The notes: a model not told the origin generated them from the letters alone. A stretch of 64,000 nt of DNA from Bacteroidales bacterium (GCA_041737175.1 JBGSSF010000002.1:10348-74347); one strand, 5' to 3'. Numbered from the stretch's first letter, positions 10,254-47,995 are shown. Numbers and translations are program-made.

Positions 10254-10384
10254 AGGGACGAGGGACAAGGGACAAGGGACGAGGAAAAACAGAAGCAGCA
10301 GTAGCAGCGGCAGCAGCAGATAGGGCATGCTCCGGACTCCAAACCCAAGACAAACTTGTCCCTCGTCCCTTGTCCCTTGTCCCT
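10254..10384. repeat. Gene-less two-armed cassette: AGGGAC(G/A) x4 / GCA-rich run plus core / T(T/C)GTCCC x4
   Basis: Inverted 7-mer arms at 10254-10284 and 10356-10384, just after the metG stop. Confidence 0.88.
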
Positions 10385-10420
10385 TTTCTTTATATATTTG
10401 TTTCAAATTAACCACAGGTC

Positions 10421-11287
10421 ATGGCCGAGAAAACCGAAAAAGAGTCTTTCTGGGAGAAGTTCAAGCATAAATACAGGTTGTCGATTTACAGGGATGAGAC
10501 TTTTGAAGAAGTGCTCAATGTGCGGCTCACCAAGCTGAATGTGATGTCCATTGTGGGTATCGGAACTTTACTTTTCCTGGTCATCGTGATATCGATCATT
10601 GCCTATACTCCTGTCCGGGAACTTATACCGGGTTATCCCGACCAGGAGACCATCCGGAACATATACATGAACAATTACCGGCTCGATTCACTGGAACTGG
10701 AGATCACCAAGCGGGATGCCTACTTTGAGAATCTGCGGAGGATCATTGCCGGTGAGGGGCCTCTTGACCCGGCTGAGACCACTTCGGAACCTGAGCCGAC
10801 GAGGCAGGTGAACTTTGTGAGATCGAGGGAGGACTCTGCACTCAGGGCTTTGGTAGAGCCGCGGGATCAGTTCGGTTTGTCGGTCATTGAAAGCCGGAAG
10901 GGAAAGCCTGCTTTTTTCAGCGTGCTTTTCTTTCCACCGGTGAAAGGGATGATCACCAACTCGTTCAACAGCGGGATGGACCATTACGGCACCGATATCG
11001 TGGCCGGCACCAACGAGGTGGTGAAGGCAACGCTTCCCGGCACGGTGACCATGGCAGGCTGGACCCTGGAGACAGGTTATGTCATTCAACTGCAGCATGC
11101 CGACAACATCATTTCGGTATACAAGCACAACGCGGAGTTGCTGAAGCACATCGGTGACCATGTGAAAGCCGGCGAGCCCATTGCCATCATCGGGAACTCG
11201 GGAGAGCTCACCACCGGTCCCCACCTGCATTTTGAGCTCTGGTACAGCGGTACACCCGTTAATCCCGAAGACTACATCTCATTCTGA
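10421..11287 (+). CDS. M23 family metallopeptidase
   Basis: HYGTD, YKH, TGPHLHFE motifs; N-terminal TM helix. Confidence 0.92.
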   Translation: MAEKTEKESFWEKFKHKYRLSIYRDETFEEVLNVRLTKLNVMSIVGIGTLLFLVIVISIIAYTPVRELIPGYPDQETIRNIYMNNYRLDSLELEITKRDAYFENLRRIIAGEGPLDPAETTSEPEPTRQVNFVRSREDSALRALVEPRDQFGLSVIESRKGKPAFFSVLFFPPVKGMITNSFNSGMDHYGTDIVAGTNEVVKATLPGTVTMAGWTLETGYVIQLQHADNIISVYKHNAELLKHIGDHVKAGEPIAIIGNSGELTTGPHLHFELWYSGTPVNPEDYISF

Positions 11288-11310
11288 GAGCGTTCACCAC
11301 GCGGTCTGAT

Positions 11311-12471
11311 ATGAAACGACGCATAGCGATCCTCGGATCCACCGGATCAATCGGCACACAGGCGCTGGAAGTCATCCTGCAGCATGAGGATCTTTTTGAG
11401 GTGGTGGCGCTGACGGCTGGGCGCAATGCCGACCTGCTGATTGAACAGGCGCTGCGTTTTGTCCCCCCTTACGTTGTAATTGCCGATGAGGCGGGTTATC
11501 CCCTGGTTCGGGAAGCCCTGGCGAAGCTGCCCGTCAAGGTGCTTGCCGGAACAAAAGCTTTGGCGGAGGTAGCCTGCATTCCGGAGGCGGATATCGTACT
11601 GACCGCCATGGTGGGTTTCTCAGGCCTGCAGCCCACGCTTGCCGCCATCCAACACGGAAAACATATTGCCCTGGCCAACAAGGAGACCCTTGTGGTGGCA
11701 GGATCCCTGATCACCTCCCTGGCCCGGCAGACAGGATCGGACATTTACCCTGTGGATTCGGAGCATTCAGCCATATTCCAGTGCCTGGCAGGCGAAGATC
11801 CCGGCACCGTGGAAAAGCTTATCCTGACTGCCTCGGGCGGTCCATTCCGGGGAATGAAAAGAGAAGCCCTGCAAAAAGTGACCAGCCGGGAGGCCCTCAA
11901 ACACCCCAACTGGTGCATGGGGAACAAGGTAACCATTGATTCGGCATCATTGATGAACAAGGGACTGGAAGTGATTGAGGCGCGCTGGCTCTTTGGCATC
12001 GATCCCGGCAGGATTGAAGTGGTGATCCACCCCCAGAGTATCATCCATTCCATGGTGCAGTTCACCGACGGATCCATCAAGGCACAGCTGGGCCTTCCGG
12101 ATATGCGGCTCCCCATTCAGTATGCGCTGGGATATCCCAACCGCCTGCCATCGGATTTTCCGCGGTTCACCTTTTCGGGATGCCGGGAGTTCACCTTTGA
12201 GGAACCTGACCGGCATCTGTTCCGTAATCTCGACCTGGCTTACAAAGCCCTGCAAGCCGGGGGCAACATGCCGTGCATCATGAATGCCGCCAATGAGGTG
12301 GTTGTGGAGGAGTTCCTGAAGGACAGGATCGGGTTTCTGCAGATGCCGGATGTGATAGAGGAGGTGATGGGGAAGGTGGATTTTATTGCAGAACCGGACT
12401 TCGGGGATCTGGAGGAGACGGATGGGGAGGCGAGGAGGATGGCGAGGGGGGTTGGGAGAGGTAAAAGGTAA
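11311..12471 (+). CDS. dxr: 1-deoxy-D-xylulose-5-phosphate reductoisomerase
   Basis: LGSTGSIG, LANKE, PVDSEHSAIFQ, TASGGPF, NKGLEVIEA. Confidence 0.97.
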   Translation: MKRRIAILGSTGSIGTQALEVILQHEDLFEVVALTAGRNADLLIEQALRFVPPYVVIADEAGYPLVREALAKLPVKVLAGTKALAEVACIPEADIVLTAMVGFSGLQPTLAAIQHGKHIALANKETLVVAGSLITSLARQTGSDIYPVDSEHSAIFQCLAGEDPGTVEKLILTASGGPFRGMKREALQKVTSREALKHPNWCMGNKVTIDSASLMNKGLEVIEARWLFGIDPGRIEVVIHPQSIIHSMVQFTDGSIKAQLGLPDMRLPIQYALGYPNRLPSDFPRFTFSGCREFTFEEPDRHLFRNLDLAYKALQAGGNMPCIMNAANEVVVEEFLKDRIGFLQMPDVIEEVMGKVDFIAEPDFGDLEETDGEARRMARGVGRGKR

Positions 12472-12565
12472 ACAGTAAAAAGTAAAAGGTAAAAAGTAAA
12501 AGGTAAAAAGTAAACAGTAAAAAGTAAAAGGTAAAAAGTAAAAAGTAAAAGGTAAAAAGTAGAAT
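12461..12565. repeat. 7-mer GTAAA(A/C)(A/G) x14 array, upstream arm of cassette 2
   Basis: 14 in-phase units at 12461-12558; contains the dxr stop codon. Confidence 0.92.
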
Positions 12566-12595
12566 GTAGCAATAGTTATTTAAAAGTTAGATGCA

Positions 12596-12973
12596 ATGAG
12601 TTATGTTAGAAGTTATACCGAATTGGATGTGTATATAACATCAAGGAAATTATCTAAAGCCATATTCGAAATCAGTCAAAAATTTCCGGCTGAAGAAAAA
12701 TTCTCTTTGACAGATCAAATAAGACGCTCTTCCAGATATGTCGGAGCGCAGATCGCAGAAGCCTGGGGGAAACGTAAATATGAAAAGCATTTCATTTCAA
12801 AATTGTCAGATGCAGATGCAGAGCAATATGAAACCAGGCATTGGATTGAAATCGCTTCAGAATGTAATTATTTAAACGAAAATGAAAAGAATACATTACT
12901 GGATTTCTGTCTGGCAGTTGGCAAAATGCTCAAATCCATGATTGATAAAGCCCATTTATTTTGTCAGACATAA
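12596..12973 (+). CDS. Four helix bundle protein (TIGR02436 / 23S rRNA IVP family), copy 2
   Basis: By manual alignment, 13 of 125 aa differ from the protein at 6024-6401. Confidence 0.93.
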   Translation: MSYVRSYTELDVYITSRKLSKAIFEISQKFPAEEKFSLTDQIRRSSRYVGAQIAEAWGKRKYEKHFISKLSDADAEQYETRHWIEIASECNYLNENEKNTLLDFCLAVGKMLKSMIDKAHLFCQT

Positions 12974-12995
12974 TATTATAGTATTAGCCTACAAC

Positions 12996-13065
12996 TGTTT
13001 ACTTTTTACTTTTTACTGTTTACTGTTTACTGTTTACTGTTTACTGTTTACTGTTTACTGTTTAC
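12996..13065. repeat. 7-mer T(G/T)TTTAC x10 array, downstream arm of cassette 2
   Basis: 10 in-phase units; reverse complement of the upstream arm. Confidence 0.92.
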
Positions 13066-13098
13066 CTGATCCCGCAAATTTCCCAAAAAAATAAACTC

Positions 13099-13106
13099 TA
13101 TATTTG
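13099..13106 (+). promoter_or_regulatory. Putative -7 promoter element (TATATTTG) for rseP
   Basis: TAnnTTTG followed by CA, about 22 nt before the ATG. Confidence 0.55.
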
Positions 13107-13128
13107 CACCTAAATTAAAACAATCTAC

Positions 13129-14484
13129 ATGGGCGTTGTCATTCAGATCAGCCAGTTATTGCTGAGCTTATCCATCCTGATTATTCTGCACGAGCTGGGA
13201 CATTTTATTTTCGCACGGATTTTTCATACCCGGGTTGAGAAGTTCTACCTGTTTTTTGACCCCTGGTTCTCGCTTTTCAAAATCAAGCGCGGGGATACCG
13301 AGTACGGTATCGGCTGGCTGCCGCTTGGCGGGTATGTGAAGATTTCGGGCATGATCGATGAATCGATGGATAAGGAGCAGATGAAACAGCCCCCGCAACC
13401 CTGGGAATTCAGGTCGAAACCCACGGGACAGCGCCTGCTGATCATGTTGGGCGGCGTAATGGTGAACCTGATCCTGGGTTTTATCATTTATGCGGCCGTG
13501 CTTTACACCTGGGGTGAGAAATTCCTTCCCAACAGGAATCTTACCAACGGAATCTGGTGTGTTGACTCCATCGCCCTGGATGCCGGATTCAGAACAGGGG
13601 ACAAGATTATCTCGATCAACGGGGTTGAACCCCAGCGGTATGAAGATATTTACCGGGAGGTGATCTTTGGCGGAACCGTGAAGGTTATCCGCGACAACAA
13701 GACGGATTCCTTCACCATCCCCGGCGACTTTATCGGAAAACTGGTTGAGGAGAGCGGCGTAATGCTGTTTTATCCCAGGGTTCCCTTTATCATCCGGGAA
13801 GTTCCCGATACTTCCGTGAACAGCCAGGCCGGACTGAAGCCGAAGGATCAGGTGATGAGCGTCAACGGAGTGCCCATCCGGTTTTATGACGAGTACCTGG
13901 GTCTTGTGGATACACTCGAACCCGGACCCATCACCGCTGAAGTATTGCGGGACGGGAAAACGGTACCGCTTGCCCTGATGCTCACCCCGCAAAAGAAACT
14001 GGAAGTGCTGACCCTGATCCCCACTTTTGAGGAGCTTGACAGGCTGGGTTTATACAAAATGGAAACCCGCACCTTCAGCTTTGCGCAGGCCATACCGGCA
14101 GGATTCAGGCTGGCCGGTGACAGGCTGGGATTTTATATCAAGCAGTTCAAGCTGATCTTTGATTTTAAGACCGGCGCATATAAGGGACTTGGCGGATTCG
14201 GCACCATTGGCGGGCTGTTCCCGAGAGAATGGGAGTGGCAATCGTTTTGGGAAATAACGGCATTTTTGTCGCTCATCCTGGCTTTCATGAATGTGCTTCC
14301 CATTCCGGGACTCGATGGCGGGCATGTCACTTTCCTGCTTTACGAAATCGTAACCCGGCGGAAACCATCCGATAAATTCATGGAATACGCCCAGATCGTG
14401 GGGATGGTGATTATCATCGGACTGCTGATCTATGCGAACACGAATGATATCCTCCGGTGGATCGAGAGACTGGTGGGGAAATAG
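13129..14484 (+). CDS. rseP: RIP metalloprotease RseP
   Basis: HELGH, PLGGYV, PDZ regions, NVLPIPGLDGG. Confidence 0.96.
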   Translation: MGVVIQISQLLLSLSILIILHELGHFIFARIFHTRVEKFYLFFDPWFSLFKIKRGDTEYGIGWLPLGGYVKISGMIDESMDKEQMKQPPQPWEFRSKPTGQRLLIMLGGVMVNLILGFIIYAAVLYTWGEKFLPNRNLTNGIWCVDSIALDAGFRTGDKIISINGVEPQRYEDIYREVIFGGTVKVIRDNKTDSFTIPGDFIGKLVEESGVMLFYPRVPFIIREVPDTSVNSQAGLKPKDQVMSVNGVPIRFYDEYLGLVDTLEPGPITAEVLRDGKTVPLALMLTPQKKLEVLTLIPTFEELDRLGLYKMETRTFSFAQAIPAGFRLAGDRLGFYIKQFKLIFDFKTGAYKGLGGFGTIGGLFPREWEWQSFWEITAFLSLILAFMNVLPIPGLDGGHVTFLLYEIVTRRKPSDKFMEYAQIVGMVIIIGLLIYANTNDILRWIERLVGK

Positions 14485-14492
14485 GAAGAGGG

Positions 14493-14636
14493 GGAGACAA
14501 GGGGACAAGGGGACAAGGGGACAAGGAGACAAGGAGACAAGGGGACAAGGAGACAAGGAGACAAGGAGACAAGGAGACAAGGAGACAAGGGGACAAGGTG
14601 ACAAGGAGACAAGGGGACAAGGAGACAAGGAGATAA
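14493..14636. repeat. 8-mer GG(A/G)GACAA x18 one-armed array
   Basis: 18 in-phase units immediately after the rseP stop. Confidence 0.92.
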
Positions 14637-14711
14637 ATAGAAATACCAAGAAAACAGGCCGGAAATCAAAAAATATTCTAATTTTACCCGTTCAAATTTA
14701 AAACGTTTCCT

Positions 14712-14903
14712 ATGAACCTGAATATTGTATTATTTGCCTTAGGGCCGACGGAGATTATACTGGTCCTGGTTGTTGTTCTGCTGCTCTTTGGCGGAAGGAA
14801 GATCCCCGAACTCATGAGGGGACTGGGCCAGGGCATGAAGGAATTCAAGAAAGCCTCCAAGGCCGGTGATGAGGAAGACACGACAAAGGAGAAGGAAAAG
14901 TAA
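14712..14903 (+). CDS. tatA: Twin-arginine translocase TatA/TatE subunit
   Basis: [39 protein letters not shown]. Confidence 0.95.
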
Positions 14904-14929
14904 TTTCCAAAGCCTTAACCTGCCGAGCA

Positions 14930-15028
14930 ATGTCACTGGGACCAACCGAAATACTGCTCATTGTTGTTGTATTGCTGTTGCTTGTGGGCGGCAAGATGAT
15001 AGAATATGAGGCAAAACGCCGGGAATAA
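14930..15028 (+). CDS. 32-aa truncated TatA-like peptide (or pseudogene)
   Basis: Translates to MSLGPTEILLIVVVLLLLVGGKMIEYEAKRRE*, paralleling the TatA TM helix. Confidence 0.6.
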   Translation: MSLGPTEILLIVVVLLLLVGGKMIEYEAKRRE

Positions 15029-15049
15029 CATTTTGTAAAGGATATTCGT

Positions 15050-15080
15050 AAAACCTGTCAATGGTATGGCAGGTTTTTTT
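15050..15080 (+). terminator. Rho-independent terminator after the tatA genes
   Basis: AAAACCTGTCA-ATGGTA-TGGCAGGTTTTTTT. Confidence 0.75.
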
Positions 15081-15164
15081 CATTTATTCAGGCAGAGCCT
15101 GAAAAGATAGATCCGACTCAGGCCGGAGCCTGAGCCGAACCTTTTAATAAGTATATTTGTGGCG

Positions 15165-16286: not shown

Positions 16287-16297
16287 GTGGGGGACTT

Positions 16298-16456
16298 GGA
16301 GACAAGGGGACAAGGGGAAAAGGGGAAAAGGAGGCAAGGAGACAAGGAGGCAAGGAGACAAGGGGACAAGGAGGCAAGGGGACAAGGGGAAAAGGGGACA
16401 AGGAGACAAGGGGAAAAGGAGGCAAGGGGAAAAGGAGGCAAGGGACAAGGAGATTA
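16298..16456. repeat. 8-mer GG(A/G)G(A/G)(C/A)AA x18 array, upstream arm of cassette 3
   Basis: 18 in-phase units at 16298-16441 plus a 7-mer unit. Confidence 0.92.
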
Positions 16457-16529
16457 TGAAAACAATTATTTATATTTGAGCGTATTTTTTAGAACGTTAT
16501 TTATTTGTTATGTGTAATACTTATTATTT

Positions 16530-16907
16530 ATGGAAAATATTAAAACGCATAGGGACCTTAGGGTTTATAAATTGGCATTTGTAACAGCACAAAAAATTTA
16601 CCAACTCTCAAGGGAATTCCCTACAATTGAGAGATATTCATTAACTGACCAAATTCGAAGAAGTTCACGTTCTGTAGCTGCCAATATTGCTGAGGCTTAT
16701 CGTGCTCGTCGATATCCTGCAGCATTTATTTCTAAACTCAATCAATCTGAGGGCGAGGCAGCAGAGACTCAAGTTTGGCTTGAATTTGCAGAATCTTGCA
16801 ATTACATAGATATGAAACTATGGGACGACTTGTTTAATACTTATGAACAGATCATTGGCATGATCGTAAATATGGTAAATATGCCAGAAAAATGGAAAAT
16901 CGGATAA
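16530..16907 (+). CDS. Four helix bundle protein (TIGR02436 / 23S rRNA IVP family), copy 3, divergent subtype
   Basis: HRDLRVY...FP..ERYSLTDQIRRSSRSVAANIAEAY..RRY..F.SKL...EGEAAETQVWL; AT-rich. Confidence 0.93.
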   Translation: MENIKTHRDLRVYKLAFVTAQKIYQLSREFPTIERYSLTDQIRRSSRSVAANIAEAYRARRYPAAFISKLNQSEGEAAETQVWLEFAESCNYIDMKLWDDLFNTYEQIIGMIVNMVNMPEKWKIG

Positions 16908-16912
16908 ATTTT

Positions 16913-16971
16913 CTCCTTCTCCTTGTCTCCCCTCTCCCCCTCACCTTGTCTCCTTGTCTCCCCCTCTCCCC
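16913..16971. repeat. CCTTGTCT / CCCCTCTC array, downstream arm of cassette 3
   Basis: Reverse complement of the GGAGACAA-type unit; abuts the purF stop. Confidence 0.85.
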
Positions 16972-18863: not shown

Positions 18864-18881
18864 AAGTGGGCCTCTACGTGA

Positions 18882-19337
18882 TTATTCAGGGAAGGCTACA
18901 ATATCATCCCGGACAAAAGCGTCGGGATACACACCTTCTATCTGTTTAAGAAACTTCAATGCCTCGCTTTTTGTTCGAAAATCCCCGACATATACTTTAA
19001 AATAGGGGTATTCAAAACGCGAATAACTGTTCACATCCTCATACAACCTGATGAATCCGGCCCTTACCTGGTCCTGTTCCTTCCTGGCGTCCTGTCCTGA
19101 GCCCATGTAGATAAGTATCCGAAATCCCTTGATACCATTGATCTTCCGCTGCTGTGAGACGTGGAGGTTCACCAGGTTGCGGATATTGGCATCCTGGGTA
19201 ATGTGTACCGTTCCCTTACCGGGCCTTTTGGCTTCAAGCCTGTAAAAGATATCAACAGGGGGTTGCTGGGCCTGCAGGGAGGTGAAAAATGCGACAACGA
19301 ACAGCAGGACAGGTATAATGGAAGCTTTCTTCAGCAT
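18882..19337 (-). CDS. SPOR domain-containing protein
   Basis: Signal peptide; GFRILIY...PYFKVYVGDFRTK.EA...YPDAFV. Confidence 0.8.
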   Translation of the reverse strand: MLKKASIIPVLLFVVAFFTSLQAQQPPVDIFYRLEAKRPGKGTVHITQDANIRNLVNLHVSQQRKINGIKGFRILIYMGSGQDARKEQDQVRAGFIRLYEDVNSYSRFEYPYFKVYVGDFRTKSEALKFLKQIEGVYPDAFVRDDIVAFPE

Positions 19338-21130: not shown

Positions 21131-21239
21131 AGGGACAAGGGACAAGGGACAGGGGACAAGTGTGTTTGGGATTATGGGTTGTGAGCATGCCCTTACTCCC
21201 AAAGCCCTATACTCCCTTGTCCCTTGTCCCTTGTCCCTT
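21131..21239. repeat. Gene-less two-armed cassette (A/G)GGGACA x4 / core / CCCTTGT x3-4
   Basis: Inverted arms at 21131-21160 and 21214-21239, between cimA and leuB. Confidence 0.88.
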
Positions 21240-26824: not shown

Positions 26825-26932
26825 AGGCTGTAGGCTGTAGGCTATAGGCTATAGGCTATAGGAAGAACACTCCCAAATCACATGCCCATAGGCTTTCAGC
26901 CTACAGCCTACAGCCTAAACCCCTACAGCCTA
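26825..26932. repeat. Gene-less two-armed cassette AGGCT(G/A)T x5 / spacer / CAGCCTA x4-5
   Basis: Inverted 7-mer arms; the yebC stop codon lies in the right arm. Confidence 0.88.
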
Positions 26933-27786: not shown

Positions 27787-27969
27787 CTTCGACTCCGCTC
27801 AGGGTGACACGCGTGTGCAGTCGTGCAGTCGTGCAGTCGTGCAGTCATGCAGTCATGCAGTCGTGCAGTCGTGCAATCGTGCAGTCATGCAGTCGTGCAG
27901 TCATGCAGTCATGCAGTCATGCAGTCATGCAGTCGTGCAGTCGTGCAGTCATGCTGAGCGGAGTCGAAG
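27787..27969. repeat. REP-like hairpin family A enclosing 8-mer GCAGTC(G/A)T x17
   Basis: Arms CTTCGACTCCGCTCAGGGTGAC / GTCATGCTGAGCGGAGTCGAAG; 17 units at 27817-27952. Confidence 0.92.
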
Positions 27970-31216: not shown

Positions 31217-31396
31217 CTACACTAAAATTATCAAATCTGTAAGGTAAAATCAAGAAAAATAGGGAGATTATGCGGTTATCCTTACGGCATTGTTAATATT
31301 ATCTTGGTAAGTTCGTTACAAACTGTTTAAAAATGATTTATATTTAAATTGTTAGTAACAAAACGATTACAGGAGGTGTTTACAATCGGGATCAAA

Positions 31397-33334
31397 ATGA
31401 TGAAAACCGCTTTGTTTATATGGCTTTGTATTACCGGAATATCCCTGTCGGCGCAGACTTCTTCGAAAAATAATGAAATGAAGCTCGATGTGGATTATTA
31501 CCTGATGCTGAAGGAATATGACAAGGCACTTGACCTTTGTCTGAAAATACTTAAAACAGAGCCTGAGAACGCCGATATAAAACACTCCATTGGGATTTGT
31601 TACCTGAATTCTGAGAATGATAAGGTGAAAGCGATTCCCTATCTTGAAGAAGCGGTGCAGAAGATATCGGCGAATTACAATCCCAACTCGCTGAAAGAGG
31701 AAAACACCTCGTTTGAATCCTATTTCACGCTGGGTAGTGCCTATCGGGTGAATAATGAACTCGATAAGGCCATTGATGCCTACAATAAATTCAAGGAGTA
31801 TCTCGACAAGGGTGACGATTACAACAGGCAGGTGGCCGATCAGTATATCAGAAACTGCAACCTGGCCAAGGAGATGCAGGCGTTTCCCGTAGGATTCAAT
31901 GCTGTTAACCTGGGCGACAAGATCAACGACGCCCGGCCTAATTTCAACGCCGTGGTGTCGGCCGATGGTAAAACCCTGGCGTATACTTCTCCGGGCAAGC
32001 AAGGGTATGAGATCTGGATATCAACACATGCCGATAGCGGCTGGACGGCCTCCAAAAATATCACTACGGTCCTGGGCACAGGGAACTTTATGAAAACCTG
32101 CGACCTGTCGTCCGACGGGCTCACCATGCTGCTTGCGCTGGATGATCCTGTGAATTCGGACATTTACATAAGCCATTTCAGCAAAGGCAGGTGGTCGAAA
32201 GTTGAACCACTGGGTAAGACAATCAACAGCAATTTGCAGGAGACACATGCAAGTTTTTCACCTGACAACAATACGCTGTATTTCACAAGTAACCGGAAAG
32301 GAGGGGAGGGTGATCTGGATATTTACAAGTCGGTCATGACCTCCAAAGGGGAATGGGGTAAGCCGGTGAACCTGGGCCCCGGTGTGAATACTCCTTTTAA
32401 TGAGGAGACCCCTTTTGTTTCCGATGACGGACAGGTTTTATTCTTTAGTTCGGAAGGCCACGAGGGCATCGGCGGATATGATGTTTTCAGTTATTCCCTG
32501 GGTGTCTCAGGAGGCGCTGTGAATCTTGGTTACCCGGTAAACACCACTGACAATAATCTGTTTTACTTTCCGGTTGGAGACGGCACCTCTGCGTATTATT
32601 CCTTTGTTGGGCCGGATTCTTACGGGGGAAGGGATGTGTATGCGGTGATGTGGTTTGAGGAAGAAAGACAAAGAGAAGAGGAGATGGGGAGAGTGGGAGA
32701 AGAAGAAGCAGCAGTAGCAGTAGCAGTGGCTGTTGAAAAAATAGCAGAAGAAGAAGCAGCAGCAGCAGCGGCAGTAGCAGTTGAAGAAGAAGCAGCAGTA
32801 GCAGCGGCAGTAGCAGTAGAAGAAATAGCAGAAACTATTCCCGAACCTGCTCCTGCTCCTGCCGCTGCTCCTGCTCCTGCTGCTGCCGCTGCCCCTGCCG
32901 CTGCTCCTGCTGCCTACTCTATCCAAATCATGGCCCTGAGAAAGCCTGTTGACCTGGATCACTTTACCGGAGTGCCCGATTTGAGGGTTGTTTACAGCAG
33001 CGACCGGTGGTACAGGTATACCGTAGGAACGACAACCCGGGAACAGGAAGCCGCGATGACACTGGAAAACATGATCAGTAAAGGATATCTCGACGCTTTC
33101 ATACGAAACAGGAATCCGGATCCCCGCTATACCATTCAGATATTTGCCGTACCCGGACCGGTGGTTGATTTGTCGAAATTCAGCGATATCATGGAAATCA
33201 CTGTGAAAAAGGGAGAGGATAATTTCTGCAGGTACACCACGGGTGAATTCAGGAGTGAGGAAGAGGCTGCCGGAATGCTGGAAAGCGTCAAAAAAATGGG
33301 CTACAGCAGCGCATTTATCAGGAGCGCGGAGTAA
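31397..33334 (+). CDS. Exported TPR + PD40 beta-propeller + Ala/Pro linker + SPOR-like protein
   Basis: Signal peptide; TPR-like helices; LYFTSNRKGGEGDLDIY and NLGYPVNT PD40 motifs; two C-terminal YxIQI..RYT.G..GY.DAFI modules. Confidence 0.75.
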   Translation: MMKTALFIWLCITGISLSAQTSSKNNEMKLDVDYYLMLKEYDKALDLCLKILKTEPENADIKHSIGICYLNSENDKVKAIPYLEEAVQKISANYNPNSLKEENTSFESYFTLGSAYRVNNELDKAIDAYNKFKEYLDKGDDYNRQVADQYIRNCNLAKEMQAFPVGFNAVNLGDKINDARPNFNAVVSADGKTLAYTSPGKQGYEIWISTHADSGWTASKNITTVLGTGNFMKTCDLSSDGLTMLLALDDPVNSDIYISHFSKGRWSKVEPLGKTINSNLQETHASFSPDNNTLYFTSNRKGGEGDLDIYKSVMTSKGEWGKPVNLGPGVNTPFNEETPFVSDDGQVLFFSSEGHEGIGGYDVFSYSLGVSGGAVNLGYPVNTTDNNLFYFPVGDGTSAYYSFVGPDSYGGRDVYAVMWFEEERQREEEMGRVGEEEAAVAVAVAVEKIAEEEAAAAAAVAVEEEAAVAAAVAVEEIAETIPEPAPAPAAAPAPAAAAAPAAAPAAYSIQIMALRKPVDLDHFTGVPDLRVVYSSDRWYRYTVGTTTREQEAAMTLENMISKGYLDAFIRNRNPDPRYTIQIFAVPGPVVDLSKFSDIMEITVKKGEDNFCRYTTGEFRSEEEAAGMLESVKKMGYSSAFIRSAE

Positions 33335-38596: not shown

Positions 38597-38607
38597 GTTC
38601 AAATTTG

Positions 38608-41700: not shown

Positions 41701-44700
41701 GATAGACATTGTCATCATCACCTGCATTGCGGACTCCGATCAGTATGGTCCTGATATTGCTGAAGTTCGGAGTTCCTTTTATTTTCATGAGATTTTTGCC
41801 TGAGCGTTTTCTGTACACCCTGAGCTTGTCAAACAGGTCGGGTCGCTCACCGATGGCATCATCACGTTCCACTTTCAGACCGACAAAATCATCGAGGTTG
41901 ATTTCGATCAGGTTGCTGTCGGGCCAGACAATCCGCCTGTCCCCATCGCCATAATTGGAATTATGCGGGGTGAGTTCAAGGGGCACCTCGTATTCGTAAT
42001 AGTTGTCGGTCTGGTCAGATCCGAGACGGATAAAAGCCGTCATATCGTAGTCGTTCAGCTGCTGATCGATCAGGGCTTCCGCATGAACGAACATTTTCAG
42101 CTTTTTATACTGGCGGAGGTCCATGCTCATGTTCTTGTAAGCAACACGGGCATCCCCGTCGGGCAGATCCCGTACCTTGAAAACAATGGACTGCTCATTC
42201 AGCTGCGCCACCTGGGGCTGACTGGGATCCACCACGCGATCGATGCCCGGAGGCAGGATATAATTGACCGGTGATTTGGCCGAGTTTTCCTCGATGTTCA
42301 CCGAGGTAATCTCAAAACTCCCGGGTTCATACTGATCGGTAACCGAAGGTCCGCCTTCGGCCACGTTGCCCTCATATTTTCTCCATTCCGAACGCACCAG
42401 GTGCAGCTCGGCAAAGCGCAGGATGATCGGATCGGCAAAACCGGTCAGATACATACGCATGAACCGGATGGATTTGAAATCCTCGATGTTGCCGTATTTG
42501 CCTTCATAATCATCAATCGGGATGCGGAACTGGTACCAGTTAACCTCCTTGCCCCTGACGATGTCGGTGATGTAACTGTTCTCAAAATTCATTTCCTCCG
42601 GGTTAAGCCTGATGTGGTACTCGTAATAGGCATCCGTTTCATTGAGGGTGTTATCGTCATTGATGTCTTCGGTATTCGGCAGTGTGGTGGCTGCTGCGAA
42701 ATTTCCCCCGCTTTGCTCCGTGGTAGGAGAGTTGCCCTGGGTGTTGTTGTAATCCTTGTACCGGGATATCACGCCTGCTGTATCGCCGTAATCGGAGCTC
42801 AGGAAGTAGCGGAAGTTGTCATTGGAAGGATCATTGTATGCCCTTTCATAAATTGGCGTACCGGGAGTCAGGTTGTTCAGCCATGCATTGTATTTCAGGC
42901 GTTCGTCATCATCACTCAGTCCGTCCAGGCCAACGTCCTGCCGTGCCCGGTTATTGGGATCTGAATCGAACGAATTAACGATACTCTGAATGGTGGGCAC
43001 CCTGCCCCATACGGTATTGGTATCGACCTTGGTGATTGAATCCGTGGTGGGCAGTCCGTTTTCAAAGAATTTCCTGGAATCTTTCAGCACATCCTCGGAC
43101 ACTTCCCCCAGGTTGAAATACAAATCACCTCCCGCGTGCAGCGAATCCTTCACAAAAGGATCCATGAGCCAGAATTCGATGTATTCAATGTTGGAGGTTT
43201 CAAAATCGTTGGTCTGGAGTTCCCGCATAATGCCGCCCCACCGGTTCTGGGGATTCGGCAGGAAACCCTGCGGTGTGATCGTGGGATCGAAATTATAGGG
43301 TCCCCTTTCCTGGGGGTAATAGGCCAGGTTCATGACCAGCAGGGTATTCTGAAAACCGGTGCCGCTTTCGCGATTCTTGAAGATTTCCGTTTCCAGCACT
43401 TCCCTGATGAAGGGATCATTCTGTTCCTCTTCTGTAATATTATCCGGGGTGCGGCTTTCATTCCTGGTGAACAGCGGATCAATCGAATACCAGGCCAGCT
43501 TGGAACGGTTGAACCCGTACCTCAGGTCATTCAGGGCTCCCGAGTTGCTGAACCGGCGCGGGGTGCTTGAAAGGAACCACGACTGCATGGTTTTGAGCTC
43601 CACGGTGGTTTCGGTGCCTTCAAAATCGTCGATATAGGCCACCCCCCCCTCGCCGATAATTTTAGCCTGCCCGGGGACCAGGTGGGCAAATTCAGCATCC
43701 ACTGAAATGGAGGAGGTTTCCTTGGTCTCTATCAGCGGCAGCTTATCCACAAGCTTGGTCAGCAGACGTGAATCGGTGCGGTAACTGGTATTGAGTCCCC
43801 AGATCGTATTTGAAATGGGCTCATCGCCCATGTTCACTTTCTGGGTGAGCGGCCGTTCGGTGAGGTTCATCACGGTGGCGCCGATGTTGAAGTTTTCAGA
43901 AATCTTGTAATCCAGATGTGTTCCAATAAGGGTTTTTGTCTGGAGATTGAACAGGGCATTGTTTTCGAGTGAAATGGAAAGGGGCGCACCGGACTGAATG
44001 AGCCCTTCATTCATGATCTTCACCCTGCCCAGGGTGTAATCCACCGAATAATCGCTTCCCTCCACCAGGGCAATTCCTCCTGAAGATACCTTGACAGATC
44101 CCTGGGGAATGTTCATGGCATTGAGCTGGATTTCAGAGCCGGAGGAGGACTGGTAGGTACCGGACAGAAAAAACTTATTTTTCTTGGAGATTTGTCTGGC
44201 TTTGGTCTGCGTGGAATCGTACAGCTCCTCGAAGACATATTTGTCGGCAATGGGATTCTTGCCGGAGTTACCACCTGTAATGGCTTTCCGAAGGTCGGAG
44301 CCGAAGGGCTCCGTCTGGGTAAAAAAGATTCGCCCGTCGCGGGAAGTAATTGTGGTTCCTTCAATGAAATCGAATCTGCCGTCGGCGTTGGGTTCATTCC
44401 GGGAGTCGAGGTTATCCATTTTCAACACGCGAAGCAGGACCTTCCTGTTGAAAGCGGAGTCTGCCTGGGGTTCGACGATATAATTCACCGGCACACCTGT
44501 TTCGTCCTTGCGATACAGGATATCGAGGATGAAGTCGGTGCCGGACACCTGATAAGCCCCAAGGGCATAAACGTTTTTCATCATCAGGTCCCAGGTCCCG
44601 GATTTGGGTGTCAGGCTGGTACCTTTCAGCAATTTGACAACCAGGGTTTTAGGTGCGCTGATGCCATCGGTGGACAGTTCACCCACCCGGTAGGTCTTGC

Positions 44701-46159
44701 CCTGCCAGGTATAAACGTAGGCAACGGCGAGCACCTCGTCGGACCGCAACGATGAATTCAGCGAGATGTAACCCAGTTCAGTGTTGAGTTTGTATTCGCT
44801 TTCAGAGAGTTTTCGTGCGTTTTCAATTTTTTCGAAATCCGTGCCCCCGTAAAAGTTGAATGCGGTTTCGAGCGGGGACAGCAAGGCGGCGATATCGCTG
44901 AATGTCCTGATACCGGCATACTGTGTGGTGATGGCGTTGTACAGGTTGTTTTGTTCATTGTTCACCGGGGAATTCCAGGCAGTGCCCGGCTGAATAAATG
45001 CCTGCTGTCCGAAGAAGTTGGGTTCACCATCGGGGCCGTAAGTCTCACCCAGGTCGAGCAGGGCCAGAATATTCCTGGTATCGGTGGTGGAGCTTGATTT
45101 GTTGGTCACCCACACTTCGATCTGTTCGATCCTGACCCCTGAGTTCACATAGGGAAGTGTGGACAGCCAGGCATTGTAATTGTCCCTGAAGTATTGCGAC
45201 AGGAAAAAGTGACGATTGGCGTCGTAATCAGCCACATCCACTTCGAATTCGCTCACCTGTGCGCCTCCTTTCACTTCGATGACCTGTGATTGTCCACGCT
45301 GGTGGCTAAAGACGGAGCTTACAAAAAGCTTTCCGAACTGCAGGTCGGTTTTCAGTCCGAACAAGCTCTGGCTTCCGGTGATCAGGGTTCCCGGAAGGCT
45401 GAAAGAGACATTACCGGCTTCTATCTTCTTGATGATCTCATCCTCCTTGCCCGTATATTCCAGCTTGGTCTTGTTTTCGAAGTCGAAGGAGGCTTCGGTG
45501 TTATAATTGATGCCGAGCTGCATTTTATCACCGATGCTGCCGGTAACGTTCATCTGAATTTTTTCTTTAAAGAGAAAGGATCCGTTTCTCCGGTTTTTCT
45601 CTGAAAGGGCGGGATTGTCGATACGCGACATGTTATAGCCGAAAATAAGTTCGGCGGATCCCTGCGGTACAATACTGATGGCATCGGTGCCGAAGACCTT
45701 ATCGAAGGTTTCTCCCATTTTTATATTTCCGAGCAGGGGCGATTGTTGCGGGGTAAGGGTTTCACGTGATTTCTGCAGCCAGTAATTCCTGACGGAATTC
45801 TGCCGGTCATACACCATGTATTCCCTGAGAGACATGGAAGAAGGAGGTCTGTAATTGAGGCGCCCGATCTTTTCGGAAAAAACATACTGTCCCGTTGCCG
45901 GATCAAACTGGATATTCTGTTCGATGTTGGAAGGATTCTTCAGGTAGAGGGGCGAGGTGAAACCTGAATTGGAGAAAGGATAACGGATCTCATCCCTGAA
46001 AGGATAACGGAGTTTGGCTGTGTCGGTTTGCACGGTAGCCCCGGTCTGCGAGAAAAGTGATCCCGAAAGGAGGATCAGGCAGATTGCCGGAAGAATGCGG
46101 GAGTAAGGACTTTTAAGCGGTTTACTATCAATGATATGTTTTACCTGCCGATAGATCAA
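38756..46159 (-). CDS. sprA: T9SS outer-membrane translocon SprA/Sov
   Basis: About 2460 aa; YNTEASFDFEN, EDEIIKKIEAGNVS, WDLMMKNVY, IEFWLMDPF, SIRFMRMYLTGF; ruvA-sprA-gcvH synteny. Start uncertain. Confidence 0.95.
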   Translation of the reverse strand: MIYRQVKHIIDSKPLKSPYSRILPAICLILLSGSLFSQTGATVQTDTAKLRYPFRDEIRYPFSNSGFTSPLYLKNPSNIEQNIQFDPATGQYVFSEKIGRLNYRPPSSMSLREYMVYDRQNSVRNYWLQKSRETLTPQQSPLLGNIKMGETFDKVFGTDAISIVPQGSAELIFGYNMSRIDNPALSEKNRRNGSFLFKEKIQMNVTGSIGDKMQLGINYNTEASFDFENKTKLEYTGKEDEIIKKIEAGNVSFSLPGTLITGSQSLFGLKTDLQFGKLFVSSVFSHQRGQSQVIEVKGGAQVSEFEVDVADYDANRHFFLSQYFRDNYNAWLSTLPYVNSGVRIEQIEVWVTNKSSSTTDTRNILALLDLGETYGPDGEPNFFGQQAFIQPGTAWNSPVNNEQNNLYNAITTQYAGIRTFSDIAALLSPLETAFNFYGGTDFEKIENARKLSESEYKLNTELGYISLNSSLRSDEVLAVAYVYTWQGKTYRVGELSTDGISAPKTLVVKLLKGTSLTPKSGTWDLMMKNVYALGAYQVSGTDFILDILYRKDETGVPVNYIVEPQADSAFNRKVLLRVLKMDNLDSRNEPNADGRFDFIEGTTITSRDGRIFFTQTEPFGSDLRKAITGGNSGKNPIADKYVFEELYDSTQTKARQISKKNKFFLSGTYQSSSGSEIQLNAMNIPQGSVKVSSGGIALVEGSDYSVDYTLGRVKIMNEGLIQSGAPLSISLENNALFNLQTKTLIGTHLDYKISENFNIGATVMNLTERPLTQKVNMGDEPISNTIWGLNTSYRTDSRLLTKLVDKLPLIETKETSSISVDAEFAHLVPGQAKIIGEGGVAYIDDFEGTETTVELKTMQSWFLSSTPRRFSNSGALNDLRYGFNRSKLAWYSIDPLFTRNESRTPDNITEEEQNDPFIREVLETEIFKNRESGTGFQNTLLVMNLAYYPQERGPYNFDPTITPQGFLPNPQNRWGGIMRELQTNDFETSNIEYIEFWLMDPFVKDSLHAGGDLYFNLGEVSEDVLKDSRKFFENGLPTTDSITKVDTNTVWGRVPTIQSIVNSFDSDPNNRARQDVGLDGLSDDDERLKYNAWLNNLTPGTPIYERAYNDPSNDNFRYFLSSDYGDTAGVISRYKDYNNTQGNSPTTEQSGGNFAAATTLPNTEDINDDNTLNETDAYYEYHIRLNPEEMNFENSYITDIVRGKEVNWYQFRIPIDDYEGKYGNIEDFKSIRFMRMYLTGFADPIILRFAELHLVRSEWRKYEGNVAEGGPSVTDQYEPGSFEITSVNIEENSAKSPVNYILPPGIDRVVDPSQPQVAQLNEQSIVFKVRDLPDGDARVAYKNMSMDLRQYKKLKMFVHAEALIDQQLNDYDMTAFIRLGSDQTDNYYEYEVPLELTPHNSNYGDGDRRIVWPDSNLIEINLDDFVGLKVERDDAIGERPDLFDKLRVYRKRSGKNLMKIKGTPNFSNIRTILIGVRNAGDDDNVYPNDGLSKSAEIWFNELRLTDFNNKGGWAANARAQVRLADLGILSVAGSTSKPGFGSIEQKVDDRNKEETNQIDVSSNIELGKLLPEKSKVSVPLYVGVSKITVTPEYSPKEPDRLLRDVINEASTREERREIKEVSQDVIQRNSINLTNVRVNREFEKFRLLSPSNFSVTAGYSETQAHSYEVERNNTIQYGLAFNYIYNARPKIFTPFKNSKGLKSPYLRFIKDFNISPLPSRLAFRTDFDRRYNEIKMRNIYDDRDILLDSTVSKDFVWNRGYELNWDLTRSLKFDLMINNQSRIDETPGAYDLFRKGNNREWSRSVWNSILNGGRSINYQHSFNTTYSLPLSKFPVLSWTSLSLRYNSTYQWNEGPVYQGSRSLGNTITNSNTIQANSTFNLTGLYSKSKYLKKIESKYSGTKKPEAEARMKSVSYSRENFFLRTKTPRNISHKLKTEKITVKVTDKEGQEIKVDYAVLDENRISIVADTNYSGLLVEVEGQVAAGENPMVFLAENSLRFLTGLKNITVSYSLSGGTTVMGFLPTPNVAGFNTGDTYKGAPGLPFLLGVQDRQFIKDAASNGWLTRNEAFTNPYTMSKTENLNIKGTFEPFKGFRIELTGTRTYTDFTSEYFHYYDSVETDNGFYFNNRMINGGFSITVITIGSAFEKLKSDNGFRSASFERFKSYRQTISQRLYANRLNNNGYNYQGTIQRTIEPGYTDGYGSTSPEVIIPAFLSAYTGKDPRRTVLEPFPGYLSILPNWRLTFDGLSKLDWVKQYIKSINIIHSYRSVYSVNSFTTNFLYEKDDRDGLGYIRDYQDNFIPELQLSTVSIREDMNPLIGFDANWVNSLITRAEFRKSRILVLSMANNQLTESLNNELIIGAGYRFKEVPIKLGEKAYKSDLNLKFDLSVRDNKTIIRYLAQTEDDESDQITTGDRIFKVMFTADYLLSPRFNLQFFFDRTLNKPHTSRSFLRVDSNIGFSLRFTLSQ

Positions 46160-46179
46160 ATTCAGGGTATTTTAAGCAA

Positions 46180-46758
46180 TTATAACTCTTTCAGGGCTTT
46201 TTTAATCAGGTCTTCAAGAGCCAGGTTTTTTTCAGCAAGAAGAATCTTATTGATCACCTTATCGGCCTCACCCTTGTTAAAACCCAGGATTACCAAAGCT
46301 GATAACGCTTCATCTTTCAATCTATTGTCCTTAACCGGAAATAATTCACCTGTTTTATCTTTGGTCACTTTATCGCGCAGATCGAGGATGACGCGCTGGG
46401 CGGTCTTGGCGCCGATCCCTTTTATGCTCTGAAGCAGGGATACATTGGCGCTGAGAATGGCCTGGCGGACATCTTCAGAAGTGAGGGATGAAAGCATCAT
46501 GCGGGCGGTGTTGGCCCCTATGCCGGAAACAGTGAGCAGCTGCCTGAACATTTCCCGTTCCTGTTTGGTGTGAAAGCCGAAGAGCAAATGGGCATCTTCC
46601 CGGATAACCTGGTGGAGATAGAGTCTGACGCGGGTTCCTGTTCCCATCCCGCTGAAAGTGGTGAGCGTTATCTGAATAAAATACCCGATGCCTCCCGTTT
46701 CGATGGTACAGCAGGTCGGATTCTTTTCAATAAGTGAACCTTCGATATATTCATACAT
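46180..46758 (-). CDS. ruvA: Holliday junction branch migration protein RuvA
   Basis: REDAHLLFGF, VSGIG..TA, KGIGAKTAQR. Confidence 0.96.
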   Translation of the reverse strand: MYEYIEGSLIEKNPTCCTIETGGIGYFIQITLTTFSGMGTGTRVRLYLHQVIREDAHLLFGFHTKQEREMFRQLLTVSGIGANTARMMLSSLTSEDVRQAILSANVSLLQSIKGIGAKTAQRVILDLRDKVTKDKTGELFPVKDNRLKDEALSALVILGFNKGEADKVINKILLAEKNLALEDLIKKALKEL

Positions 46759-46776
46759 GATTGCAGCAATTAGGCA

Positions 46777-47829
46777 TCAGGATTCTGAGATGTCAACCTG
46801 CTTCAGAGGATTTGCCGACATTTCTTTGAATAGTTTTCTGCTTCGGAAGATGTCGCAGGCCAGGTAAATGGCTTTCCGGAATGAATCAGCGGAAGCCTCG
46901 TTCTTACCGGCCAGCTCATAAGCGGTCCCGTGAGCAGGAGAGGTGCGCACCACGGGAAGTCCGGCAGTAAAATTGACTCCGCCTTCAACGCTGAGTGCTT
47001 TAAAGGGGACAAGGCCCTGATCGTGATACATGGCGAGCACGGCATCGAATTGGGTGAAGCTGCCGGCCCCGAAAAAGCCGTCGGCAGGAAACGGCCCGAA
47101 TGCCAGTATGCCTTCTTCCTGCGCCTGCATAATGGCAGGAATGATCTCTTTGATTTCCTCATCACCCAGCAGGCCATGGTCTCCTGCGTGAGGATTCAGT
47201 CCCAGCACGGCGATCCTGGGAGAGCGGATCGTAAAATCACTGAGGAGTGAATGGCTCAGTATCCGCAGCTTATTCAGGATGGTGTCGCGCACGATATATT
47301 CATTGACTTTGGCCAGGGGGATGTGGGAAGTGACCACCCCGATGCGTAAAAACTCATTGACCATCAGCATGAGCACACCGTTTGATTTGAAGTGGGTCTC
47401 AAAAAACTCGGTGTGGCCGTTGAAATTGAAATGTTCCGATTTCACATTTGATTTGTTGATGGGGCCGGTTACGAGGGCATCCAGTTTACCCTCTCCGAGG
47501 TCCTTGACAGCCGCCTCGAGCGCTTTCAGGGAAGCCTCACCTGCATCAGGTGTTGATTTGCCCAGTTCCACCCGGGCAGAATCATCGATGCAGTTGATGA
47601 TATTGGCGCGGCGGACAACAGCCTCGTCGACCGTGCGGATCGTGTTGAAGCTGAAATTCTCGAGATTAAGCGCTTTACGATGGTAGGCAGCCACTTTGGG
47701 AGAACCGTAAACAACGGGAGTGCATAACTCCAGGATGCGGTTATCCGACAGTGATTTCATGATGACTTCGTAGCTGATGCTGTTTATATCGCCCTGGGAT
47801 ATTCCCAATATGATCTTGTCGCCCTTCAT
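46777..47829 (-). CDS. pdxA: 4-hydroxythreonine-4-phosphate dehydrogenase
   Basis: GPINK, GHTE, GLNPHAG, AMYHDQG, RTSPAHGTA. Confidence 0.95.
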   Translation of the reverse strand: MKGDKIILGISQGDINSISYEVIMKSLSDNRILELCTPVVYGSPKVAAYHRKALNLENFSFNTIRTVDEAVVRRANIINCIDDSARVELGKSTPDAGEASLKALEAAVKDLGEGKLDALVTGPINKSNVKSEHFNFNGHTEFFETHFKSNGVLMLMVNEFLRIGVVTSHIPLAKVNEYIVRDTILNKLRILSHSLLSDFTIRSPRIAVLGLNPHAGDHGLLGDEEIKEIIPAIMQAQEEGILAFGPFPADGFFGAGSFTQFDAVLAMYHDQGLVPFKALSVEGGVNFTAGLPVVRTSPAHGTAYELAGKNEASADSFRKAIYLACDIFRSRKLFKEMSANPLKQVDISES

Positions 47830-47885
47830 TGCAGAGGAATGTGATTAGGTTAAAATGATTAAGGTAGGCAAATGTAAGAAAAAAA

Positions 47886-47995
47886 GTGATGAGTGATGAG
47901 TGAAGAGTGATGAGTAATGAGTGAGCATGGGATTTGTGTATGCTCCAGTCCCAAAACCCAAATCCCGCTCATTACTCATTACTCATTACTCATTT
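47886..47995. repeat. Gene-less two-armed cassette GT(G/A)ATGA x5 / core / CTCATTA x4
   Basis: Inverted 7-mer arms between divergent TAnnTTTG elements at 47869-47876 (-) and 48008-48015 (+). Confidence 0.88.

Follow-up and report, generated by a model that had tools for sequence, protein, structure and literature searches.

The window analysed here, 64,000 nt of a Bacteroidales genome (GCA_041737175.1, JBGSSF010000002.1:10348-74347), contains four short gene-less elements, called E1 to E4 below, each built of two inverted arrays of tandem heptamers (the arms) around a spacer. Their spacers share a sequence of about 30 nt, which the first-pass annotation of the window had described as a common core. 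This core is the inner, more diverged part of the heptamer hairpin arms and not a separate module. Because its diverged heptamers are periodic and stand in the register of the arm, the core is the same kind of sequence as the arms, and it is referred to as the inner tier in the following. The tier most likely marks one genus-restricted lineage of cassettes that carry a PF05635 gene, encoding a 23S rRNA intervening sequence (IVS) protein with an Avd-like four-helix bundle, which would explain its presence in elements that differ in their outer arm words. Taking all evidence together, we favour the reading that the shared tier is real and that the elements are hairpin-only relatives of these IVS-like cassettes, probably residing as selfish hairpins at gene 3' ends. 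Our certainty is highest for the anatomy and the family relationship and lower for the function. New are a phased inner tier common to several arm words and to gene-bearing cassettes, a concerted change of the arm word at an orthologous site, and a site that is empty, gene-less or gene-bearing depending on the species.

A second tier of heptamers inside the hairpin arms

All four elements lie between protein-coding genes and not in 23S rRNA: E1 between metG and an M23 peptidase gene, E2 between leuB and a leuA-like gene, E3 between the leuA-like gene and yebC, and E4 between pdxA and a small open reading frame (ORF). Their coordinates are given on the plus strand of the window. The left arm of E1 (10254-10284; AGGGACA/GGGACGA, 4.4 copies) starts 6 nt past the metG stop codon and is followed by the left half of the spacer (10285-10321), an A-run with (CAG)n. 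The tier of E1 (10254-10385) is one-sided: the G-rich half (G-tier) is not present on this side, the opposite half being the (CAG)n run, and the core corresponds to the C-rich half (C-tier; 10322-10351, units GGGCATGCTC..CTCCAAACCCAAGAC). The right arm (10355-10385; CTTGTCC, 4.4 copies) is followed by TAnnTTTG, a promoter-like sequence of the M23 peptidase gene. E2 consists of a left arm at 21131-21160 (AGGGACA, 4.3 copies), a spacer at 21161-21212 and a right arm at 21213-21239 (TCCCTTG, 3.9 copies), whose end is 2 nt away from the stop codon of the LeuA-like gene on the minus strand. The spacer contains the G-tier GTTTGGGATTATGGGT (21164-21179), the apex GAGCATGCCC (21183-21192) and the C-tier CCCTTACTCCCAAAGCCCTA (21190-21209), and in the predicted fold the two half-tiers pair with each other. 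Preceded by a run of eight A, the left arm of E3 (26825-26862; AGGCTRT, 5.4 copies) is followed by the spacer (26863-26896) and by the right arm (26897-26932; CAGCCTA, 5 copies), whose last unit includes the stop codon of the yebC-like gene on the minus strand. E4 is flanked by divergent genes, pdxA on the minus strand and the small conserved ORF on the plus strand. Between its arms (47885-47924, AGTGATG/AGTAATG, 5.7 copies; 47968-47994, CTCATTA, 3.9 copies) the spacer (47925-47967) comprises a short G-tier GCATGGGATTTG and a C-tier proceeding in heptamer steps (ATGCTCC, AGTCCCA, AAACCCA, AATCCCG) up to the junction CCCG:CTCATTA, where the colon, here and below, marks the border between tier and arm.

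No PF05635 ORF was found in these four spacers of 34-70 nt, and blastx gave no remnant of the gene. For the whole elements, folding energies between -41 and -72 kcal/mol were predicted (z from -5.9 down to -9.1), and none of 200 shuffles was equally stable. Contigs from four DNA runs covering 8200-12440 break at the arms, the depth of which is pooled from many other loci and organisms, and the joints in the spacer carry other short loops.

The elements are located where the first-pass annotation had placed them; the 30-mers it quoted match letter for letter, and the spacer of the element at 26825 contains TCCCAAA and CATGCCC as claimed. The three 30-mers (10322-10351, 21164-21193 as reverse complement, and 47935-47964) show pairwise ungapped identities of 21, 21 and 19 of 30. 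In the complete genome of the window (G000; 4.32 Mb, 36 contigs) the program Tandem Repeats Finder reported 2,284 repeat rows, mostly with periods of 7-9, and 165 of the 1,236 arrays with periods of 6-10 have an inverted partner within 1.3 kb, compared with 33 in a reversed-unit control. The genome-wide set of inter-arm spacers comprises 44 pairs with spacers of 25-150 nt. In these 2,658 nt CCCAAA/TTTGGG was observed 27 times (1.26 expected; present in 19 of the 44 spacers) and ATGCTC/GAGCAT 10 times (0.9 expected); CCCAA/TTGGG occurs in just 21 of the 44. The motif ATGCTC-N10-12-CCCAA, suggested earlier for a test of enrichment between arms relative to other intergenic DNA, was found five times in 2,650 nt of inter-arm sequence versus twice in 339,961 nt of other intergenic sequence, and twice in coding DNA. 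This is an enrichment of about 320-fold (Fisher p 6e-10); since three of the five matches are the cases from which the motif was drawn, independent support comes from the two further matches and the word enrichments. The tier is too short and too degenerate for nhmmer and was therefore analysed by counting words, by statistics of the phase and by local alignments with shuffled controls. With regard to the small RNA motif suggested earlier, Rfam models gave no matches anywhere in the window at gathering thresholds, and no public RNA run was listed for 8200-13200.

Genome-wide, a second inverted layer was detected inside the arms, its left half being (GGGTTTT/GGGATTT)n-GGGCATG and its right half CATGCYC-(AAAWCCC)n, and the noted core is the right half of this layer. 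The outer tier is made up of homogeneous tandem heptamers (GGGACAA, AGTRATG and others), the inner tier of two to five diverged heptamers, which read GGGnnnn in the 5' half and nnnnCCC in the 3' half; the half-tiers meet at an apex of GCATGC-like units. On the inner side of GGGACAA arms consecutive GGG runs are spaced by exactly 7 nt in 11 of 24 intervals and by 6-8 nt in 18 of 24; the values for AGTRATG arms are 21 and 29 of 37. The first GGG run stands in one phase relative to the end of the arm in 10 of 17 flanks for GGGACAA and in 17 of 20 for AGTRATG (binomial p with a correction for phase choice, 2e-4 and 2e-11, respectively). The sharing of a core of about 30 nt was upheld (19-21 of 30 identical positions), whereas its description as a discrete site unlike the arms was not, as the heptamer array continues through it in the same phase and the sequence is degenerate.

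The occurrence of the tier depends on the arm word. We counted arrays with at least two tier words in 45 nt on their inner versus outer side. For GGGACAA arms these were 17 and 4 of 63, respectively, for AGTRATG arms 20 and 2 of 57, for AGTAGGG arms 4 and 2 of 21 and for TGGTGAW arms 3 and 2 of 13. The corresponding values are 1 and 2 of 26 for AGGCTRT, 0 and 3 of 62 for GTAAAMA, 2 and 3 of 47 for GTTGTGRT and 0 and 0 of 11 for GATCGAA arms; among random 45-mers 483 of 20,000 contain at least two tier words. The tier is specific to the inner side of GGGACAA- and AGTRATG-type arms, and rare or missing next to four other arm words. A strict word search for the five tier-associated arm classes revealed 28 two-armed elements (56 arrays), of which 8 carry a two-sided and 11 a one-sided tier and 9 are tier-less, versus 111 unpaired arrays of these words, 15 of them with a tier.

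Some GGGACAA-armed hairpins nest a third, innermost inverted pair of CGCAAAGA/CTTTGCG 8-mers (C18:78006-78228, C11:202778-202970 and C16:90384-90582 of G000). These nested pairs suggest repeated insertion into hairpin centres.

Gene-bearing PF05635 cassettes

PF05635 genes are present in 31 of the 35 genomes of the genus (PF05635 search). Among the loci fetched from them there are 59 distinct proteins; one of these has too little flanking sequence and was left unscored. A tier in an inner flank was found for 12 of the 19 cassettes whose protein begins with M-x-T-H (the M-x-T-H type) versus 7 of the 39 others. The M-x-T-H cassettes that were fetched have GGGACAA, GTGACRA, AGTRATG, TGGTGAW or GTGGTTA arms, and in most of them the tier is located between arm and gene. 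Tier-bearing cassettes of the sister genomes include L033-L037, L042, L044 and L062; one example of their junctions is CATGCCCAAAACTCTCATCCCG:CTCATTAC. Those with GGGACAA, GTGACRA and AGTRATG arms share the tier up to the junction ...CCCG:CTCATTAC. Cassette L035 has the structure (AGTRATG)n GGGGGGGATTGGGCAAGAGTTTTGGGTGTG ... gene ... CTCATGCCCAAAACTCTCATCCCG:CTCATTAC, its junction being identical to that of E4, and L036 the structure (GGGACAA)n..GGGAATTGGGTTTGGGATTTGGG ... gene ... CATCCCTAAACCCCC:CTTGTCCC.

Local alignment of the spacers with the inner flanks of 18 sister cassettes, using 40 dinucleotide shuffles each, points to the same relationship. Nine of the 21 spacers with the core scored higher than all 40 shuffles (median z 2.86), compared with 2 of the 23 core-less spacers (median z 0.13). 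The z values of the four elements are 3.7 for E2, 2.9 for E3, 2.2 for E4 and -0.13 for E1.

The genome of the window itself has 12 PF05635 genes. A single one is of the M-x-T-H type (C10:5745-6099), and it is surrounded by TGGTGAW/GTGAATR arms with a tier. None of the 12 genes has GGGACAA or AGTRATG as its immediate arms, and therefore the tier elements with such arms are all gene-less in this genome; G002, G013 and G036 each contain a gene-bearing cassette with AGTRATG arms. When 39 spacers of 60-400 nt were compared by blastx with the 59 proteins, the matches were at chance level (E >=0.005) and no PF05635 coding remnant was detected, the sole exception proving to be a true gene-bearing cassette (C11:142285-142680). 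The view that the gene-less elements are non-autonomous derivatives holds for the kinship with gene-bearing cassettes, which is visible in common arm words, tier and junction. The gene-less forms may have arisen by deletion of the gene, of which the spacers retain no remnant, or the genes may be a cargo acquired by hairpins.

Three PF05635 genes are situated in the window, each enclosed by inverted arrays of 7-8-nt repeats. Their products, of 125 aa each, were identified as 23S rRNA IVS proteins with weaker bAvd-like matches. The first cassette (5951-6522, minus strand) contains the gene 6024-6401 (minus strand) between GTAAAMA-type arms (5951-6003 and 6428-6522) and is adjoined by an outer GGGACRA half-arm (5889-5924, plus strand). 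The other two are encoded on the plus strand, at 12461-13065 (gene 12596-12973, (GTAAAAR)n and (ACTGTTT)n arms) and at 16290-16971 (gene 16530-16907, (GGRGACAA)n and CCTTGTCTCC-like arms). Contig C10 carries seven of the 12 PF05635 genes of this genome within its initial 27 kb, a stretch that lies partly upstream of the window. The G+C content of this contig is 47.9%, versus 42-46% in other contigs.

Occupancy, position and alternative explanations

Gene order around the window is kept in five sister genomes. At the E1 site, between metG and the M23 peptidase gene, G002 has GTGACGR arms replacing GGGACRA, both arms being altered together, and a related tier GTGTGAGCATG ... CCCATGCTCAAACCTCA with an unchanged junction; G017 and G001 have other repeats. 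At the E4 site next to pdxA, AGTAATG arms with a longer tier and identical junctions are present in G002, GGGACAA arms with a different interior in G001 and GTGATTA-type arms in G018, whereas G017 has only a short remnant. No comparable repeat element was detected at the E2 site in the stretches of G017, G002 and G012 that were examined. The site of the cassette at 5885-6525 is occupied in G002 by a gene-less GGGACAA hairpin of 141 nt, whose tier reads CAATTCCCCAATTCCTAAAACCCA, in G001 by a PF05635 cassette with 8-nt arms and in G017 by other palindromes, and comprises 33 repeat-free nt in G012. In the genome of the window, the GTAAAMA-armed cassette there adjoins the lone GGGACRA half-arm, as if it had inserted into a GGGACRA hairpin. 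The site that corresponds to the cassette at 12455-13128 is empty in G002 and contains a related gene between other arm words in G018. Divergence between filled and empty orthologous sites is too high for a base-by-base alignment.

One gene-less element was copied within the genome: C29:237468-237585 and C29:294647-294763 share about 95 nt, comprising arms and tier, with 2-3 differences, in opposite orientation and between unrelated flanks. No target-site duplication is visible at the ends of this single copied pair. The junction of the tier with AGTRATG arms (CCCR:CTCATYACTCATYACTC, at most one mismatch) was found in 5 of the 35 genomes of the genus, at 23, 29, 25, 11 and 2 sites. In a sample of the order, comprising this genome and 200 others, it was restricted to this genome and one more, whose 2 sites are without CCC. 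The reversed junction, used as a control, was found at no site in all 35 genus genomes and gave scattered matches in the order sample. This occupancy pattern is that of a lineage-specific repeat family, expanding and turning over.

In the syntenic stretches of G017 and G018 and in L003 the spacers often hold a palindrome resembling repetitive extragenic palindromic (REP) sequences (...CAGATTGCTTCGTCCCGTAA..GGGACTCGCAATGACG...), with as many as four or five copies in tandem. Several unrelated repeat families have hot spots in these spacers.

The gene-less elements are found predominantly at gene ends. Among the 40 that could be classified, 23 are located between convergent, 16 between co-directional and 1 between divergent genes, compared with 513 convergent (15%), 2,348 co-directional and 516 divergent pairs among the 3,377 gene junctions genome-wide. 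E4 was scored as co-directional by the crude caller used for this count and is divergent on direct reading. Stop codons facing an element lie at -19 to +8 nt from the edge of the arm in 50 of 62 cases, 27 of them inside the arm. The polarity of the arms is fixed as well: in a word search the purine-rich word precedes the pyrimidine-rich word in 41 pairs, and the opposite order was not found. Genome-wide, stop codons close all three frames in 45 of 86 arms read inward and in 6 of 86 read outward, a bias that may be a simple consequence of purine richness. With a period of 7 nt, one stop triplet per unit covers the three frames within three units.

The interpretation of the elements as hairpin-only relatives of PF05635 cassettes builds on their anatomy and phase, the arm-class specificity, the tier in gene-bearing cassettes, the occupancy differences and the copied pair. 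According to this interpretation, intact sister cassettes keep the tier between arm and gene, and in the gene-less elements the half-tiers abut. The latter take cassette-type sites, at stop codons and mostly at convergent gene ends, turn over among species and can be copied to new sites as units. Transcripts entering such an element would fold into a long stem. In analogy to the 23S rRNA IVS, this long RNA or DNA hairpin at mRNA 3' ends might serve as an RNase III-type stem or as a 3'-end protector, and the genome has an RNase III gene. The elements may persist as selfish or nearly neutral DNA.

Several points weigh against this interpretation. E4 and one other element sit between divergent genes. 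A run of at least four T is present within 14 nt after the right arm in 7 of 43 cases and one of at least four A ahead of the left arm in 4 of 43, compared with a background of 379 of 3,412 past stop codons. The tier is absent from 7 of the 19 M-x-T-H cassettes and from 9 of the 28 two-armed elements of the tier-associated arm classes, and the likeness of the spacers to sister flanks is modest, as 12 of the 21 core spacers do not exceed all of their shuffles and E1 has a z of only -0.13. The lack of any PF05635 coding remnant in the gene-less spacers belongs here, too. Furthermore, gene positions and the division into coding and intergenic DNA are those of a crude longest-ORF call. Finally, the spacers alone are weakly self-complementary (median z -1.62), and for just 2 of 19 core spacers at most 2 of 200 shuffles were equally stable. 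Pairing of the tier seems not to be strongly maintained, with the half-tiers decaying independently.

As the main alternative, suggested already by the first-pass annotation, the tier might be a putative cis-acting recognition site, whose GGG/CCC-anchored units and GCATGC apex would be recognised by the M-x-T-H PF05635 protein or by a cassette-moving enzyme, the arm words being interchangeable and the gene-less copies being served in trans. We regard this as rather unlikely. It would fit a tier that remains constant while the arm word changes, that tracks one protein subfamily (12 of 19 versus 7 of 39) and that keeps the junction CCCR:CTCAT in four genomes. The presence of one M-x-T-H gene (C10:5745-6099) for at least 19 two-armed tier elements, the absence of AGTRATG and GGGACAA as immediate arms from all 12 PF05635 genes of this genome and the copying of one gene-less element as a unit point in the same direction, and the weak self-complementarity of the tier suits a role of its sequence better than a role in pairing. 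However, conservation is limited to the period and the GGG/CCC anchors, with no fixed recurring sequence longer than about 7 nt. Moreover, elements with the same arms are without a tier in 9 of 28 cases and have it on one side in 11, and PF05635 proteins are without known catalytic activity (PMC4990558).

More speculatively, and with little probability in our view, the GGG tier with its 7-nt spacing could be a binding array of a ring-shaped (pentameric) M-x-T-H PF05635 protein, with one heptamer per subunit, and this protein would mark, protect or mobilise the tier hairpins. If this were true, the gene-less hairpins would travel as non-autonomous passengers in a system of protein and repeats, and heptamer repeats of bacteria in general would be read-out arrays for the PF05635 family.

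Within the genus the tier is a constant handle, which remains linked to a single protein subfamily although the outer arm words vary. As it marks about twenty gene-less hairpins per genome, it provides a defined sequence for tests of binding, processing and mobility, and the orthologous sites, being empty, gene-less or gene-bearing by species, are usable for dating gains and losses. If the tier is merely a decayed arm, it would show how hairpins age and why unrelated-looking arms have a common core.

It is improbable that the elements are resident 3'-end hairpins, i.e. bidirectional terminators or mRNA stabilisers, grown in place by 7-nt slippage and hairpin-templated correction, with the core as a product of convergence. 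The location at 3' ends of genes, with convergent neighbours in 23 of 40 cases, the strong folds, the run of eight U after E3 on the yebC strand and the difference of one base in the arm word between orthologues, which affects both arms together (GGGACRA here, GTGACGR in G002), are what such a mechanism would produce, and cyanobacterial heptamer hairpins of the short tandemly repeated repetitive (STRR) type have been proposed as transcript stabilisers or terminators (PMC2670836). Nevertheless, the near-identical copy pair lies in unrelated flanks, tier and junction also border a gene in sister genomes, and one site is empty, gene-less or gene-bearing by species. The restriction of the junction to 5 of 35 genus genomes, with 2-29 sites each, resembles the expansion of a family, and U-tracts merely occur at background rate. 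A classification as canonical intrinsic (Rho-independent) terminators was rejected because of this U-tract frequency; E3 and E4 are individual exceptions.

Very unlikely, finally, is a regulation of neighbouring genes by G-quadruplexes of the strand with GGG every 7 nt (and i-motifs of the C strand), the core extending the G-tract array: GGGACAA arms and tier have a G-tract in each unit, (GGGACAA)n and the (GGGWTTT)n tier match the form G3-N4-G3, and G-rich heptamer repeats of Xanthomonas and Nostoc have been studied as quadruplex formers (PMC4692102), but AGTRATG, AGGCTRT and GTAAAMA arms build the same type of element without G-tracts, and within the hairpin the G strand pairs with its C partner. 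Growth of terminators in place and quadruplex formation account for less of the evidence than the kinship with PF05635 cassettes.

Known repeat systems and further repeats in the window

REP sequences, bacterial interspersed mosaic elements (BIME), REP doublets forming hairpins (REPIN) and miniature inverted-repeat transposable elements (MITE) are short gene-less hairpins dispersed in intergenic DNA, enriched at 3' ends, lineage-specific and kin of a gene-carrying element. Unlike in REP and REPIN, the arms of the elements described here are tandem arrays of variable number instead of a fixed palindrome, and the partner gene is not a REP-associated tyrosine transposase (RAYT) gene. The inverted arms are shared with MITE, but there is no target-site duplication in the one copied pair, and the related gene is PF05635 and not a transposase. 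To our knowledge, the "23S rRNA IVS protein" family PF05635 has been without an assigned function for 30 years.

The 23S IVS of Coxiella burnetii contains an S23p ORF, a 28-bp terminal stem that is cut by RNase III and tandem heptamers (GACAGAT) whose number varies between strains, and ORF-bearing 23S IVSs are also cited for Leptospira, Brucella and Xanthomonas (PMC4990558). As in these 23S rRNA IVSs, terminal inverted repeats forming a long stem surround a PF05635 gene, with tandem heptamers inside, and the ORF of an IVS can decay while the RNA element remains (PMC4990558). Unlike these IVSs, the elements of the window are located between protein-coding genes, their arms are two-tier heptamer arrays throughout, and E1 to E4 are gene-less.

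The heptamer simple sequence repeats (SSR) of Xanthomonas (GGGAATC, with 70-75 convergent pairs reported) and Nostoc (GGGGAYT) (Rehm et al. 2015, PMC4692102) are likewise intergenic tandem heptamers with a GGG anchor, variable other positions and no assigned function. The elements described here have the properties by which SSR pairs are defined there, namely at least two tandem 7-nt units, an intergenic location and two convergent arrays on opposite strands capable of forming a stem-loop. Different from those SSRs, the arm words include some without G-tracts, and an inner tier, a link to a gene cassette or a comparison of orthologous sites is not mentioned in the excerpts of that paper (PMC4692102).

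Heptamer hairpins of the STRR type occur in cyanobacteria, e.g. between hupS and hupL (PMC2670836), and TAACTGA repeats are known from Beggiatoaceae, Cyanobacteria and Bacteroidetes, heptamer repeats being an over-represented class in many bacterial genomes (PMC4679880). For both, roles in transcript stability, termination or translation have been proposed (PMC2670836, PMC4679880). The elements in our study resemble STRR (PMC2670836) and TAACTGA repeats (PMC4679880) as 7-bp intergenic tandem repeats near gene ends, capable of forming hairpins and with a patchy taxonomy. TAACTGA arrays are mostly single and located just 5' of start codons (PMC4679880), whereas the elements described here are paired, abut stop codons and have a diverged second tier. 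In searches of open-access papers we found no description of PF05635 genes between inverted heptamer arrays outside rRNA or of a shared inner tier. The published link of heptamer repeats to PF05635 is only made in passing, via the heptamers of the Coxiella IVS.

Further repeats were observed in the window. A second palindrome family, CTTCGACTCCGCTCAG(CATG/GGTG)AC ... GTCA..CTGAGCGGAGTCGAAG, is present at 6917-6966, 7962-8185 and 27787-27969, once as a tight hairpin 3' of a UPF0102 gene; in the two other cases it forms arms on either side of a long tandem array. The arrays inside consist of a 24-nt unit repeated 8 times (7975-8165) and of the 8-nt unit GTGCAGTC repeated 17.5 times (27815-27954). 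At 32698-32920, inverted (AGCAGY)n/(CTGCTS)n arms of 74 nt, 78% complementary and 24 nt apart, are located inside a 661-aa reading frame (31349-33334); their word is shared with the (CAG)n run in the spacer of E1 and with the arms of the sister PF05635 cassettes L053 and L054. A long unpaired array of 17.6 copies of GGAGACAA (14493-14633) follows 3' of a gene that ends at 14484. In G017, G002 and G001 the orthologous spacers contain small TatA-like ORFs, with comparable arrays in G017 only. An inverted-repeat cluster at 51094-51289, including a perfect 20-nt pair CAACCACGGAGTGGTTGAAT with the copies 26 nt apart, lies in a spacer of 382 nt (51044-51425), and the orthologous spacer comprises 33-77 nt in G017, G002 and G001.

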